Below are positions 58,640 to 64,000 of a DNA stretch of 64,000 bases, piece by piece. This stretch comes from an uncultured Planctomycetota bacterium (GTDB taxonomy: Bacteria > Planctomycetota > Planctomycetia > Isosphaerales > Isosphaeraceae), in assembly GCA_963823665.1 (NCBI GenBank), contig CAWGMQ010000010.1:32001-96000 (forward strand), given 5' to 3'. Each line of letters opens with the position of its first letter. The first letter of the stretch is position 1. Both the position numbers and the translations under genes were made by a program. The notes below the pieces were generated by a model. It saw only the letters and a list, made by a program, of their open reading frames with translations, was not told the DNA's origin and ran no database searches.

Positions 58640-59029
58640 ATGCTCCGATCGCTGAAAAAACTCCTGGGACACATTTCGATGCACTCGAACGGGCTTCAAC
58701 CCGAAGCCAGATTCTCGGTGGTTGTCACGGATACGGAGATCATCAACCATCGCCCGGAGGGCAAGATCGAACGTGTCGCCTTTGCGGACTTGCTCGCCGT
58801 GATCATCGAGACCAATGACTCCGGACCGCTCGGCACCGATGTTTGGTGGATTCTGGTCGGCCGCAGCGCCGGCAGCGGCTGCGTATTCCCCGGCGGTGCC
58901 ACCGGCGAGAAGCAGGCGGTCGAGGCACTGCAACGACTCCCGGGATTCGATAACGAAGAATTCATCAAAGCCATGACCTGTGTGGAGAACGCGAGGTTTG
59001 TGCTCTGGAGAGCACCCCAAGCCCATTGA
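58640..59029 (+). CDS. Hypothetical protein
   Basis: IETNDSGPLGTDVWWIL, PGGATG, LQRLPGFDNE..AMTC..F.LW; protein-like composition. Confidence 0.7.
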   Translation: MLRSLKKLLGHISMHSNGLQPEARFSVVVTDTEIINHRPEGKIERVAFADLLAVIIETNDSGPLGTDVWWILVGRSAGSGCVFPGGATGEKQAVEALQRLPGFDNEEFIKAMTCVENARFVLWRAPQAH

Positions 59030-59239
59030 TCACAACGCCACGTCCGGCAATCCCAGAAACGCTGAAGGCTAAGCGATCCGGTTCGTGTGGTAACCCGCCA
59101 TTTCTCAAATCTCGGTCCCGTCCCAAGGGAGTTACTCTGAAAACTGACCCTCCACATCTGGCTGGCCTCAAACCGCAGCACGGACGTCCACGAGCATAAC
59201 TCAGGCCAGCGCCATTTTCATGGGGCTGCGTGCCCCTCC

Positions 59240-59622
59240 CTCCGGCGACGAGCTTCGCCTTCTGCGGATCGACTTCCGCAAGCCGATTGAGCGCCACGTC
59301 CAGGGCCGCGAGATCGAGCTCCGATTCCGATCGCGCTTCCGCTTCCGCTTCTGCTCCCGCTCCCGGGTCGGGCAGCGCGTCGGCGTCGAGGGCGTCCAGG
59401 TCGCTGCGGCGCCAACCACCGCCCTGCTTGGAGCTCAGTTTACGGTGCGCGTTGTCGACCAAAACTCGCCGCATCGCTTCGGCGGTGGCCATGAAGAAAT
59501 GACGGCGATTATTCCAACGAGCATCGTCAGAGTCGCCGACAAGCCGTAAGTACGCCTCGTGCACGAGCGCTGTCGGCTGAAGCGTCTGGCCCGGCCTTTC
59601 CTGGGCGAGCATCGCCGCGGCT
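59240..59622 (-). pseudogene. Truncated TIGR02999-like ECF sigma factor
   Basis: LAAAMLAQERPGQTLQPTALVHEAYLRLV..ALDVALNRLAEVDPQKAKLV aligns to the middle of 198-752. The first ~30 aa and the region-4 HTH are missing. Confidence 0.8.
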
Positions 59623-60313
59623 AACCTCTTGTTACGCGGCGTCTTCTTGCGGAACCGGCCACGGCCACGACCGCGGCGCATCCGATCGCCAGCAGGATCA
59701 TCGCCGAGGGCTCGGGTATCGAGGCAATGGTGATCGATCCACCCAGAGGCGTAAACGCGACGGGCAACCCGGTGGCGTCCGCCAGCGAGGTATCCGGGCC
59801 GAACGCGAGCGTGCCTGAGGAGCCAGGAGTCGCATTGGCGGCGACCGAATACTGAACGTTCACCAGGCCGAAGGTGTCGCCCGTGTTGATCGTCTGGGCG
59901 CCCGTCGAGAGGAGGAAGTCGAAGGTTTCGAATTGCGTCCCCGGAAACGTACTAAAGGTGAATGTCGATCCCGCAGTCGTTGCCGAAAGCGCGCCGTAGA
60001 TGTAAGGCGTTGCCGTCGCGATCGACACGTTGGTGAAGGAGACGCTGCTCAGACCGGTGAGCGAGAGCTCGACCGTATCGCTCGCCACATTGAAGCTACC
60101 TCCCGTGCTCGTGATCAGCACATCGAACGATCCGGAAGAGCCCGGATTGACGGTGAGGTTCGGAGCTTCGATGACCAGATCGGCCCGACACGAGGCGCCG
60201 AAACCGAGGGCGATCGTCGCCACGATCGCCGGGGCGAGCATGGCTCGAAGATGGACGAGGAACGATCCGCGTCGGAGACGAAACGACCGGCAGATGGGCC
60301 CTGGGTTTTTCAT
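59621..60313 (-). CDS. PEP-CTERM protein with a putative cohesin-like domain
   Basis: Signal peptide (..CRADL), a roughly 150-aa beta-rich domain, then IPEPS, a TM and RRRR. Confidence 0.85.
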   Translation of the reverse strand: MKNPGPICRSFRLRRGSFLVHLRAMLAPAIVATIALGFGASCRADLVIEAPNLTVNPGSSGSFDVLITSTGGSFNVASDTVELSLTGLSSVSFTNVSIATATPYIYGALSATTAGSTFTFSTFPGTQFETFDFLLSTGAQTINTGDTFGLVNVQYSVAANATPGSSGTLAFGPDTSLADATGLPVAFTPLGGSITIASIPEPSAMILLAIGCAAVVAVAGSARRRRVTRG

Positions 60314-60391
60314 GGGTTTCTTCTCACCTACGAAACAGGGTAAGCTCGGATGGAAATCTATCTGATCACACGCGGCGTGAGCTCGAGATGG

Positions 60392-63198
60392 TCAGGCCGG
60401 AGGCCCTAGAGTTGGAAGCTTCTTGCCGATGAAGCGACCGACCAAGTTGGTATCGTTGATATCCACAACACCGTCGCCGTTGATGTCGTCGAAGATGTTG
60501 TAAACGCCGCCCAGGCTCGCGAAATCGTTGCGGACGTCCACAAGGTCCTGCGCATTGACCACGCCATCGTCATTGACATCGCCGGGGAGGACGTCCAGGC
60601 GCCGGGTATAGGTCGTGATGCCCGCGTTGCCGATGGTCACCGTCACGCGGTCGGCCGTCGTGATCGCCTGGGCGAACGTGATCGTGTAGTTCGTCCCGGA
60701 GCCGGAGATCGTCACCGGCCCATAATTGGCGACCGTGATCCCCGTGACGCTCACGTCGCCCGGCGAAAGGGTCTCGGCTTGACTGAGCGTGATCTGGAGC
60801 TTGTTGATCCCATACCAGGGGAGATCGGTGTTGCGCCCGGCGGGGAGCAGCACCTGCACGCCGTTTTCCATCACGGTTTGCAACGCGATCGTGCCCGTCG
60901 TGCCCCAGTCGGCCGAGACCGCGGTCACGGTGGCGGCGACCTGGTTCACCGTCACGAGGAACTGCACGCTGGTCTGGTCCACCCCGCCGTTGGCCGTGCC
61001 GCCGCTCTCCATCACGGTCACCGTGATGGTGGCTGAGCCAAAGCTGTTCGCCGCCGGCGTGAAGGTCAACGTGCCCGTCGAATTCGGGCTGGTGTAAGTG
61101 ATCGACGGGTTGATCAGGGAGGAGTTAGTCGAGGAGGCCGTGACGGTCAGGGTCTCACTCGCGCCACCGCCGGCTGCGATACCCGTGAGGTCGACGGTCT
61201 GCTCACCCGCATTCTCATTGATCGTCACATTCGCAGGCTGGATGATCGTCGGCGCCTGGTTGACGAAGTTCACGGTCACGGTGAATTGTACGCTGGTCGT
61301 GTTCGCACCGCCGTCGTCCGAAACGGTGACGGTGATGGTGGCCGACCCGTACATGTTCGCCGCGGGCGTGAAGGTCAAAGTGCCCGTCGAATCCGGGCTG
61401 GTGTAGGTCACGGCCGGATTATTGATGAGGGAGGTGTTGTTCGAGGAGGCCGTGACCGAGAGCGTCACGTTCCCGGCGGCGCCGGACGTGATGCCCATGA
61501 GATCGACGGTCTGCTCGCCCGCGTTCTCATCGATCGTCAGGTTCGAGGGCGTGTTGATCGTTGGCGGGACGTTGACCTGGTTCACCGTCACTTTGAACTG
61601 CACCGCGGTCTCGTCCACCCCGCCGTTGGCCGTGCCGCCGTCGTCCATCACGGTCACGGTGATGGTGGCTGAGCCAGAGCTGTTGGCCGCAGGGGTAAAC
61701 GTCAACGTGCCGGTCGAATTCGGGCTGGTGTAGGTGATCGACGGGTTGATGAGTGAGGAGTTGTTCGAGGAGGCCGTGACCGTCAGGTTCTGGGTCTCGC
61801 CGCCGCCGGCCGCGATGCCCGTGAGGTCGACGGTGTGCTGGGCCGGGTTCGCATTCTCATTGATTGGTCACGTTCGAGGGCGTGTTGATCGTCGGCGCGT
61901 CGTTGACGTGGTAATAAAGCCGGCTATAGACTTCTGCGTCGTTGTCTACTGGTCTTGCTCTGCCAGACGAAGATGGCGTTGCCGTAGGGATTGGAGGCAA
62001 CGTCCGATGTCAGTCTGGCTGTCGCCGGACTGGGTCGATGGCTGGAACAGGGTTGTCCCGATCAGCGTCCCCCCCGAGTTGACGCGCTGGGCGAGGATCG
62101 TGCCATTGCGACGAGCTCGTCCCAGCAACGCCGTCACTCTCCCACGCCACGACGAAGTCGCCCTCGCTGTCGATCGCGACGGAGGGATGGGTCTGGAAGT
62201 AATTCTCGGGACTGCTGACTTGGACCACGCTCGTCAGCGCGTTCCCGCTGCCATCGAACCGCTGGACTTCGACCCCCGGATTCGTACCCGTCTGCGTGAA
62301 TTGCCAGGCGATGACGAACTGACCGGTCGGCTCCATGGCGACCGAGGGGTTCGCCGCGCCGGCGGCCGTGCTGATTGCGGTATTGGTCCCGTTCACCGTC
62401 GGGCCGCCGGAGCCCGAGGTATAGGTGTAGCGCTGGGCGTAGACTCCCGCGGTCTGAGCGGACCCGCCGTCCTCCCAGGCGATCACGAAGTTGCCCGAGG
62501 TATCCATCGCGATCGACGGGGCACCCTGATTATCCCCCTGGGGGCTGTTGACGCGGAAGACAGAACCCTGGGACACCCCGGACGCGTTGAATTGCTGTGC
62601 GAAGACACCGTGGCAGTTGGAGTCGTACCCCTGATACGCGATCACGAAGTCGCCGGCCGAGTCCATCGCCACCTTCGGCAAGTTGCCGGCCGCAGCCTTC
62701 GTGCCTCCCGGCGTGACGGTTATGGTGCTCCCCTGAGCAACCCCGGCGAGGTTGTACGCGCTGGGCGTTGATCGCGTAGAAACTACCGGTACTCGTAGGT
62801 CTGCCAGGCTACGACGATGTCGCCATTGGCGTCCATCGCCACCGAAGGACGGGTGCTTCCGGTCGTCTGGGCGACCTGCGATCTCGCCCGTCTGGGGGAC
62901 CCCGGCGGAGTTGTAGACGCGTGCCTTGACGTCGTAGATATAACTCGGGCCCAGGTGGGTTTGATTGTTCCAGGCCACGACGTAGTCGCCGTTGACTGTC
63001 CATCGCGACCGAAGGCTGAGTATCGTCCAGCGGAGCCGACGTGTTGACCTTTGCGTCAGTGCTCGAGACGGCGACCAAGCTCAAGACGATTCGCTCCTCC
63101 ATCGCTTCCAGCCTGGGCTGCACGACCCTGCTGCGCCGCCGGAATCGATCTCGCTTCTCTAGGGAACTCGGGAGAGGTCGTTTCATCGGAAGTCCCAT
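60392..63198 (-). CDS. Large secreted protein: planctomycete leader, PSVAMD repeats, 3 Ig/cadherin-like repeats, C-terminal dockerin (several frameshifts)
   Basis: RRR..PRLEAMEERIVLS; repeated PxVAMDxxGxFVIAW; three ~105-aa TVDLTGI..TLTFTPAAN..GSATITVTV repeats; GDVNDDGVVNAQD..DINGDGVVDIND. Confidence 0.82.
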
Positions 63199-63398
63199 CT
63201 GGTACAAGCAGCACGAGTTACGGAACCATACCGAAACCGCGAAACATCTCGGGACTGACTGAAAAGAGCGTTTCTGCGCTCAAACCGTCACGTCGGTTGG
63301 GACGAGCGTAAAGCGCGTGAAACCAAAATGCAACGGGGTCACTGCGAACCGGACCTCGTCTGATGCGAAAACTCAACATGACTGTTTCAATAATTGCG

Positions 63399-64000
63399 TC
63401 ATTTGGGTTCGGCCACCACCGCGCTGGGCCGGAGCCAGTAGGCGAACTCGGGGGCGGTGACGGCCTGGCGCGTCGCCTCTTTCTCCGCGTTCAAGATCAT
63501 GGGGCGCTGGAGGTCGGGCAGGAACCGCACGTCGAACAGCTCGGTGCAGCCCTCGGTGAACTCGAACAGCCCGAGCTGGCGGCCGGTGTGCAGCTCGATG
63601 ACGGCCACGCCGCAACGCAACCGCGGATATCGCTCCTGGACGGGCAGGCCGCCGAAGATGTGCTTCTCGCGAATCGTGCTCAGGCCGACCAGGGCGACCG
63701 GTCCGACGAAACCGAGCCCGCGAACGTAGCCGGGCAGGCTGCAAACGACTTCGTGCCGGAACGATTCGAGGTCGACCCGCCACAACTCCCCCGCGCCCGA
63801 GTTGAGCACCCAGAGCGATCCGTCGTGGAGGCGGGGCGAATGCGGCATGCTCAGCCCGCGCAGGACGATCTCGCCGGTGGGCACGTCGATCACCAGGCCG
63901 CCATCGGCCTTTCGCTCCCGCCAGCCGCCGACCGTGTCTGTCGCTCCCATTGCCGTGACGAACCGCGGCCGGCCGCCTTCCATCGCCAGCCCGTTGAGAT
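63399..64000 (-). CDS. TIGR03032 / DUF4915 family protein (5' part outside the window)
   Basis: LNGLAM at the window edge, GGWRERK, GLSMPHSPR, LNSGAG, LPGYVRGL, VGLSTIRE, ELFDV. Confidence 0.88.
   Translation of the reverse strand, partial: LNGLAMEGGRPRFVTAMGATDTVGGWRERKADGGLVIDVPTGEIVLRGLSMPHSPRLHDGSLWVLNSGAGELWRVDLESFRHEVVCSLPGYVRGLGFVGPVALVGLSTIREKHIFGGLPVQERYPRLRCGVAVIELHTGRQLGLFEFTEGCTELFDVRFLPDLQRPMILNAEKEATRQAVTAPEFAYWLRPSAVVAEPK

Follow-up and report, generated by a model that had tools for sequence, protein, structure and literature searches.

The window analysed here, a stretch of 64,000 nucleotides from an uncultured planctomycete, carries towards its end three adjacent, co-oriented minus-strand genes, as the earlier note on this DNA had described: a DUF4915/TIGR03032 gene, a dockerin-bearing cargo gene and a gene for a small PEP-CTERM protein with a predicted cohesin fold (Table 1). 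Between the cargo stop (60392) and the last of these genes there is a gap of 78 bp and, beyond the window edge, three tail-collar genes precede the DUF4915 gene, together with a GNAT gene in divergent orientation. A scan of promoters and terminators gave no excess over shuffled sequences.

Table 1. Features of the locus, with the basis of each assignment.
Feature	Position	Strand	Basis
Gene of the PEP-CTERM protein with predicted cohesin fold ('socket', putative anchor), 230 aa	59621..60313	-	ORF; full-length homologues
Predicted Sec signal peptide, cleavage after A-x-A-type site	60182..60313	-	sequence, judged by eye
Predicted cohesin-fold domain, 154 aa	59720..60181	-	AF2 model, Foldseek, VIA, profile matches
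PEP-CTERM sorting tail: PEP motif, hydrophobic helix, basic cluster	59621..59719	-	TIGR02595, PF07589
Dockerin-bearing cargo gene, ~930 codons, frameshifted in the assembly	60392..63186	-	three-frame translation, indel map
Dockerin ('plug'), both calcium-loop motifs intact	60401..60586	-	PF00404, family profile
Conserved beta-sandwich adjoining the dockerin on its N-terminal side, placed like an X-module	60587..60940	-	recurrence in many loci
Three cadherin-like / Big_9 stalk repeats	60941..61905	-	PF17892, PF17963, NF012211
Predicted seven-bladed beta-propeller head, frameshifted here	61906..63078	-	AF2 of intact orthologue L053
Basic N-terminal motif, LE-x-LE-x-R-like pattern, probable export signal	63079..63186	-	sequence
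DUF4915/TIGR03032 gene, 3' part (full 379 aa; runs past window end)	63399..64000	-	profile matches

The open reading frame and the tail profiles (TIGR02595, 21.5 bits, cut-off 16; PF07589, 20.8 bits, cut-off 20.7) confirm the proposed architecture of the small protein, i.e. a signal peptide, a single domain and a PEP-CTERM tail; all the marks of a PEP-CTERM substrate (PEP motif, hydrophobic helix, basic tail and N-terminal signal) are present, the signal peptide being recognised by eye. Close homologues of 230-250 aa align over their full length and keep a C-R-A before the domain, and a Tat reading of the RR motif was dropped because homologues do not conserve it. The family comprises 1174 clusters at 50% identity and is single-domain, nearly all of its best 150 representatives being shorter than 330 aa with, save one, a single stretch each. 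That the domain is a cohesin, as had been suggested from the sequence, is borne out at the level of predicted fold. Its AlphaFold (AF2) model (pLDDT 97.7) is a nine-stranded jelly-roll sandwich like that of solved cohesins, and the structural comparison with cohesins that the earlier note had proposed returned cohesins as the 20 top VIA matches (Z 15.6-9.6, the best with an rmsd of 2.4 over 140 residues; first non-cohesin, 9.2) and as the Foldseek matches listed (6kgc, E 2.3e-8). Profile searches reached cohesins weakly (4ums, E 0.002; 5n5p, E 0.0027), though Pfam gave no match, PF00963 being found in 0 of 24 family members and NCBIfam making no cohesin call either; among the look-alike Atlas clusters, 20% of members carry PF00963.

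The cargo had been described as a large secreted protein ending in a two-loop dockerin and devoid of a membrane anchor. The dockerin and the absence of an anchor behind it hold, but the gene is not a single open frame and the protein begins with a basic, R-rich motif rather than a classical signal peptide. Eight frame-breaking indels, mapped against four orthologues, lie between ~62997 and 61862 and leave only the last 437 aa as an intact ORF in the window, the orthologues being intact at 672-1150 aa. We attribute the frameshift partly to assembly error; with reads covering this region unevenly, three of the eight indels could be compared with them. Under a strict pattern, 13 of the 30 long cargo frames have a motif resembling the N-terminal one; we presume that this is the motif labelled 'planctomycete extracellular / LEPR-XLL', no HMM having matched here. 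At the other end, PF00404, matching at 60428-60586, scored 21 bits in one search and 24.3 in another, thus on either side of the 22.9 cut-off, and the profile of the dockerin family matches the CelS dockerin (E 1e-11). In the 62-aa domain a helix (625-636 and 656-664 in an orthologue model) follows each of the two calcium loops, as in type I-like dockerins, and loop aspartates are 95-100% conserved over 73 pairs. The sandwich preceding it, all-beta in the orthologue model, recurs in this position at many loci and has no Pfam match. The propeller head of the intact orthologue L053 was modelled with a pLDDT of 89.5 and finds its nearest solved fold in the CylK propeller (Z 38.7; next, 28.9), a likeness from which no function is derived because identity is 14% and only the propeller aligns.

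Modelling of the complex, a further proposal of the earlier note, predicted an interface between the cohesin and the neighbouring dockerin, with a score of 0.90 against 0.02 for the best control. The mark is reached by 116 of 157 solved pairs and by 2 of 215 mismatched ones, counts that hold only roughly for our runs, which used our own alignments and calcium, and a pair of so well-known a type may pass through the predictor's memory of a solved look-alike. At least 98% of the contacts are shared between runs, partner pLDDT is at least 85, and the predicted interface involves loop positions 10, 11, 13, 14, 17 and 18 of the dockerin, the canonical ones. Covariation between the proteins, over 73 pairs, exceeds that of random columns (p 0.014), but the excess is not significant relative to entropy-matched columns (p 0.17) or to full shuffles (p 0.13); the Mantel correlation (r 0.66) follows from linkage alone. 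Calcium-dependent cohesin-dockerin binding is a prediction of the models.

Among the 90 family loci retrieved out of 128 matches, 83 have a same-strand dockerin within 1.5 kb upstream (78 of the 84 with enough flank, window included) and 86 a PEP-like tail. The order DUF4915-dockerin-PEP-CTERM, whose conservation the earlier note had proposed to test, was found conserved for the dockerin-cohesin pair but not for DUF4915, which lies near only 7 of 60 longer loci. Upstream dockerins also occur at 20 of 23 GTDB loci, one of them from an Acidobacteriaceae genome, and near-complete genomes with the pair include G059, G090 and G118. In the host genome, all three family members, the one in the window and those at C8:346868 and C4:2556706, follow a dockerin and none of the 45 other PEP-CTERM matches does; a gap in score separating five host dockerins from the rest was discarded as circular because those five sequences were in the profile. 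The dockerin ends within 20 aa of the cargo terminus in 75 of 85 cases, while what stands before it varies (Ig, cadherin, beta-helix, PA14, an M12B peptidase at L148, a collar triad), and L059 has tandem dockerin-cohesin units. Recurring with so many cargos, the pair probably fastens adhesin-like proteins to the cell envelope through predicted, cellulosome-like binding. Exceptions run in both directions: six of the 84 assessable loci, and the Phycisphaerae-type L060 and L064, have no upstream dockerin, 29 of the 33 host dockerins have no PEP-CTERM gene behind them, and G020 holds the same cargo with its dockerin and no family member within 2.4 kb downstream. The genomes sampled are related to one another, most of them being MAGs from a single family; a single weak match (E 9e-4) in 300 other genomes of the phylum indicates that, at the search sensitivity used, which distant cohesin-PEP proteins would escape, the sequence family is largely confined to that family. 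Plasmids gave no match.

An exosortase, whose presence in the genome the earlier note had made a point to verify, is encoded at G000:C4:2261016 (TIGR02602, 152.7 bits, cut-off 105.55), with Cys, Arg and His present; it adjoins an EpsI-like gene among polysaccharide genes, and a second homologue lies at C4:1548545. The part of PMC12188702 drawn on here describes exosortase substrates as either released or attached, the outer membrane, polysaccharide or both being possible anchoring sites, and that source and PMC1569441 treat their final location as unsettled in the parts consulted.

Domain order, gene order and the presence of an exosortase are the observed base of the reading we favour, to which we would assign a probability of about two in three: the small protein would be an exosortase-processed, single-cohesin envelope anchor capturing the dockerin of the adhesin-like cargo encoded by the adjoining upstream gene, a cargo with no anchor of its own. 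By analogy with the PEP-CTERM literature, the cohesin protein would be exported by Sec, cleaved at PEP and attached to the outer membrane or to exopolysaccharide; the cargo, a propeller head on a cadherin-like stalk, would be exported by its own N-terminal signal, and its calcium-loaded dockerin is predicted to dock on the cohesin sheet. Together the two halves would make up a PEP-CTERM anchor in two parts that serves many different cargos. The 'mini-scaffold' envisaged earlier overstates the case, since with one cohesin per protein an anchor is the better term. It is conceivable, though rather unlikely, that the proteins bind and the cohesin is no surface post, being instead released or joined to exopolysaccharide once cleaved by the exosortase, or kept in the periplasm as an escort, with the complex then cross-linking the matrix or assisting export. 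The described fates of exosortase substrates (PMC12188702, in the part seen) and the polysaccharide genes around the exosortase would suit it, but one-to-one pairing with large, stalked, anchorless cargos fits display best, and direct PEP-CTERM tails on collar triads (51 of 120 long matches) parallel the two-part form. We hold it distinctly improbable that the genes are passed on together although their products do not bind, the cohesin-fold domain being a lone small surface sandwich for adhesion or glycan binding and the dockerin a calcium-binding cap; orphan family members, the many host dockerins lacking such a neighbour, the covariation under the two stricter comparisons and a complex score possibly owed to memory speak for it, whereas the dockerin keeps its place next to the cohesin gene even as other parts of the cargo change, other PEP-CTERM genes of the host do not follow dockerins, and both calcium loops are kept.

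A three-gene system with DUF4915 as dedicated accessory of the pair, the role it had been given from the sequence, is very unlikely. The gene is indeed of the DUF4915/TIGR03032 family (405.7 bits over its full length, cut-off 251.5), it precedes the cargo at six of the 23 GTDB loci and flanks more distant family members (L138, L167, L181, L156, L161), more than chance would give; against this, it is absent near 53 of the 60 longer loci and 17 GTDB loci. Of 121 genomes in the order, 80 carry it, many without any family member, in up to 15 copies (six in the host), and G108 and G109 combine it with a collar triad and a propeller cargo having neither dockerin nor cohesin. DUF4915 goes instead with a collar-triad/GNAT cassette that is distinct from the pair and associated with the propeller type of cargo, and for which our literature search found no related description; at this locus the two modules meet.

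Returning to the two-part anchor, its cohesin half is likely a diderm analogue of the Ruminococcus flavefaciens ScaE anchor (PMC12484212; PDB 2zf9), with an exosortase in place of sortase. In the part of that source used, ScaE likewise presents a cohesin on a C-terminally sorted protein and binds the X-dockerin dyad of a separately exported one; it carries an LPXTG motif for sortase attachment to peptidoglycan, whereas the tail here is PEP-CTERM, in a diderm, with no scaffoldin or cellulase and each anchor gene behind its own cargo. Of the marks of a cellulosome, multi-cohesin scaffoldins are lacking in this single-domain family, and the Pfam matches of 25 cargo frames (best five families each, some frames partial) contain no glycoside hydrolase. 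Outside cellulosomes, the Archaeoglobus fulgidus cohesin (PDB 2xdh) matches structurally (Z 14.8, rmsd 1.9; 20-21% identity), in an archaeal envelope and without PEP-CTERM, and archaeal cohesin-dockerin binding has been verified according to the portion of PMC9012536 consulted. The 'planctosome' of Nemodlikiaceae is likewise a proposed non-cellulolytic cohesin-dockerin display of planctomycetes (PMC6461901, as far as the text drawn on goes); it has a 2,210-aa lamin-tail anchor, an HYR-containing adaptor and docked peptidases, in contrast with a 230-aa single cohesin with PEP-CTERM, undetected by Pfam, and the one M12B cargo found here. Known PEP-CTERM substrates (PMC1569441, PMC12188702, in the parts used; TIGR02595, TIGR02602) share the signal peptide, the tripartite tail and an exosortase beside polysaccharide genes, but most have no assigned function, whereas a partner is predicted for this family; the main text of PMC1569441 mentions neither cohesin nor dockerin, and the published literature searched did not combine PEP-CTERM with either. 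If correct, our reading would assign a clear role to a large PEP-CTERM family nameless in Pfam, supply partners for part of the planctomycete 'orphan' dockerins and mean that diderms rebuilt a Gram-positive anchor with another sorting enzyme; the docked cargo would then serve as a reporter of where exosortase substrates end up.

It is tempting to speculate, as a tentative and somewhat doubtful extension, that the cohesin-PEP-CTERM half of this split, reusable surface anchor of diderms here holds a stalked propeller bearing a domesticated phage tail-fibre tip, in which three leaderless collar proteins would assemble into a heterotrimer with bound metal, mature with the aid of GNAT and DUF4915 and ride on the cargo. 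Three collars fused to a PEP-CTERM tail, or placed between an export motif and a dockerin, would be its one-gene forms, and at L137 a collar triad with a dockerin does stand before a cohesin-PEP gene.

The cohesin-dockerin pair with its PEP-CTERM tail is a real feature, and gene order provides the strongest evidence for it. We inspected 90 of the 128 matches to the family of the small cohesin-fold PEP-CTERM protein (an initial 30 and 60 picked among the next-best near-full-length ones, weak or fragmentary matches being excluded). A same-strand dockerin lies within 1.5 kb upstream at 83 of these loci (78 of 84 where the flank reaches 1400 bases or more, counting the window), no downstream dockerin occurs at any of the 90, where flanks are about 1.5 kb, and 86 keep a PEP-like tail; the genomes are kin and the counts are not independent. 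A GTDB scan, partly overlapping this set, placed the dockerin upstream in 20 of 23 loci; one locus was too short, two Phycisphaerae-type loci had no upstream dockerin, and one Acidobacteriaceae locus has the dockerin-cohesin order. In the source genome (16.46 Mb, 12 contigs, 91.9% complete) each of the three family members sits behind a dockerin gene, a fourth such gene lies before a different beta-rich PEP-CTERM protein (L032:1978-2844, contig C3), and 29 of the 33 dockerins have no neighbouring PEP-CTERM gene. Conversely, scoring 150 of its 296 PEP-CTERM candidates yielded 47 matches (two known tails were missed), with a dockerin within 2.5 kb upstream for two family members only and for none of the other 45. 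Cargo domains range over Ig, cadherin, beta-helix, PA14, NHL, M12B peptidase and collar repeats, and the dockerin lies within 20 aa of the cargo end in 75 of 85. Since cargos differ while dockerin and order persist, what is conserved is a plug followed by its socket, not the cargo.

Other genes of this genome deserve mention. The beta-rich PEP-CTERM protein is unmatched by the family profile and is perhaps a second socket family. Some 19 large proteins (contigs C3, C4, C5, C6, C7, C8, C10 and C12) end in near-identical long-linker dockerins with no adjacent cohesin. A second family pair (L033, G000:C8:330-347 kb) is preceded by very long frames that contain an RHS-like segment as well as YDG, MBG and cadherin repeats. 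The stretch L043:4521-13723 (G000:C4:3060.5-3069.7 kb) encodes a protein in which two Pfam cohesins occur together with dockerin motifs; a 1958-aa frame beginning with a cohesin comes next, in an arrangement that looks adaptor-like and is separate from the PEP-CTERM family.

Features of the cohesin-dockerin locus and its flanks
Feature	Position	Remarks
ECF sigma factor remnant	58965-59620	TIGR02999-like, 5'-truncated
Small ORF (predicted socket)	59621-60313	minus strand; 230 aa, intact; starts 78 bp past the upstream gene's stop; PEP-CTERM tail at end
Cargo gene	60392-63186	minus strand
Dockerin (plug) at end of cargo gene	60428-60586	PF00404, 21 bits in one scan, 24.3 in another; cut-off 22.9
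DUF4915/TIGR03032 gene	63399-64000	extends past window end
Three leaderless tail-collar genes, divergent GNAT gene	L006:2552-5512 (G000:C10:96551-99511)	past window end; PF07484; H-x-H motif in each collar

The three-gene anatomy described in the earlier note held for the small ORF and its spacing, the PEP-CTERM tail (TIGR02595, 21.5 bits against a cut-off of 16), the terminal dockerin, preceded by three cadherin-like repeats, and the DUF4915 gene, but the cargo is not one open frame. Comparison with four orthologues revealed eight frame-breaking indels from about 62997 to 61862. The extra bases at 62879 are missing from short-read contigs of two public runs, and those at 62994 and at 62109 from contigs of a single run in each case; one of these contigs has no substitutions across 176 bases. 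Depth is below 5, the source sample may be among the runs, and the contigs bear on three of the eight indels. Orthologues free of such breaks, 672-1150 aa long, are common, and assembly error is a likelier cause than local decay. One public-run contig is identical over 60313-60515, joining dockerin end to cohesin start. The cohesin stop abuts the sigma factor remnant, and one such contig crosses this junction with no differences. The model of an intact orthologue (L053, pLDDT 89.5) comprises a propeller of seven blades plus an Ig-like repeat, a sandwich and the dockerin, and the cargo may have an adhesin-like role. The nearest solved structure to the propeller is that of CylK (Z 38.7, rmsd 3.1 over 358 residues; next 28.9), whose function we do not transfer from fold likeness.

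Modelling bears out the proposal that the small protein is cohesin-shaped. Pfam cohesin models match neither it nor any of 24 aligned members; its AlphaFold model, from a 91-row alignment (pLDDT 97.7), retrieved cohesins as top Foldseek matches (6kgc, E 2.3e-8, TM 0.73), and in a search of 48,161 chains cohesins filled the top 20 rows, with Z from 15.6 down to 9.6 and a best rmsd of 2.4 over 140 residues, the best other fold reaching 9.2. An independent sequence profile reached two cohesins (4ums, E 0.002; 5n5p, E 0.0027), and Atlas clusters of look-alike structures carry PEP-CTERM, plus PF00963 in 20% of members. Isosphaeraceae and other Planctomycetota MAGs supply the named relatives of the small protein, which makes an Isosphaeraceae planctomycete the likely host. 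Clustering at 50% identity divides the family into 1174 clusters; nearly all of the best 150 are single-domain, and in 125 of these 150 the PEP motif is close to the end. Within the order, 56 of 121 genomes contain the family, with one weak match among 300 other genomes sampled from the phylum.

The cargo dockerin, also anticipated in the earlier note, is canonical: both calcium loops are retained, with loop aspartates at 95-100% (73 distinct pairs), the family profile matches the CelS dockerin (E 1e-11), and the two helices are present in the orthologue model. Modelled with two calcium ions, the complex scored 0.90 against 0.02 for the best control, with at least 98% contact agreement between runs and partner pLDDT of at least 85; the mark applied is reached by 116 of 157 solved pairs and by 2 of 215 mismatched ones, counts that are approximate here as own alignments and a ligand were used. 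Predicted contacts (cohesin residues 33-36, 85-93 and 129-140; dockerin loop positions 10, 11, 13, 14, 17 and 18) agree with what we take to be the usual geometry. Cohesin-dockerin is a textbook pair, and therefore this pass indicates likeness rather than proof that this copy binds; covariation gave p 0.014 against random columns, but 0.17 when the columns were matched for entropy and 0.13 when compared with full shuffles; for within-cluster shuffles the figure was 1 of 60. That the genes are linked while their products do not bind we consider quite improbable.

We favour, at roughly two chances in three, a cohesin-PEP protein acting as an exosortase-processed envelope anchor that captures the cargo dockerin. 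The protein would be exported by Sec, cleaved by exosortase and attached to the outer membrane or polysaccharide, and the cargo, exported separately, would be captured outside. The genome encodes an exosortase with the Cys, Arg and His residues, adjoining an EpsI-like gene amid polysaccharide genes. The cargo N-terminus is a basic motif with zero HMM matches, presumably of the type typical of large planctomycete proteins. Binding in a released, matrix-bound or periplasmic complex we deem unlikely. DUF4915 as a dedicated accessory of the pair, suggested as possible in the earlier note, is very improbable. The gene occurs in 80 of 121 genomes of the order, in multiple copies (six in this genome), near only 6 of the 23 GTDB family loci and 7 of the 60 longer ones, and G108 and G109 have collars, DUF4915 and a propeller cargo with neither dockerin nor cohesin. 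DUF4915 thus goes with the collar cassette and with cargo of this type rather than with the anchor.

An envelope anchor of this kind would work similarly to ScaE of Ruminococcus flavefaciens, a cohesin with a sortase signal according to PMC12484212, yet it is not a member of that system; nor does the pair belong to the cellulosome or to the planctosome proposed in PMC6461901. Cohesins and dockerins outside cellulosomes are known, with unclear roles, from PMC9012536, PMC5244752, PMC2386152 and PMC11557425, and PEP-CTERM background from PMC1569441 and PMC12188702. The literature searched, largely main texts outside the subscription journals, contained no description of PEP-CTERM combined with cohesin or dockerin.

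The collar genes, which resemble T4 gp12 and other fibres, precede DUF4915 with the divergent GNAT gene, just outside the window in the same block as the pair; no phage genes were seen around them in the 20 kb read. The entire block recurs in six GTDB loci. By hand count, the order has 17 multi-collar clusters (several from congeners), of which 12 have a cohesin-PEP gene no more than about 10 kb away, two of the 12 without a dockerin. At L137:2167-5070 three collar domains are fused within a dockerin cargo ahead of a cohesin-PEP gene, and among the best 120 long collar matches three repeats are present in 92 and a PEP-CTERM-like tail in 51. The same collar payload would thus be displayed via a direct PEP-CTERM tail or via dockerin and cohesin-PEP protein, which supports the pair being a split anchor.

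A few of the single-chain triple-collar proteins (P0265-P0366) combine an export motif with a dockerin; H-x-H is missing from the L137 and P0314 triple-collar forms, and P0323 is also single-chain. Loci L198 and L199 (genomes G046 and G045) hold GNAT, the collar triad, a DUF4915 remnant, a TPR/sulfotransferase-like gene and a cohesin-PEP gene, without dockerin cargo. Upstream of the GNAT gene next to the window lie a subtilase-like gene and two glycosyltransferase genes (L006:6228-11945).
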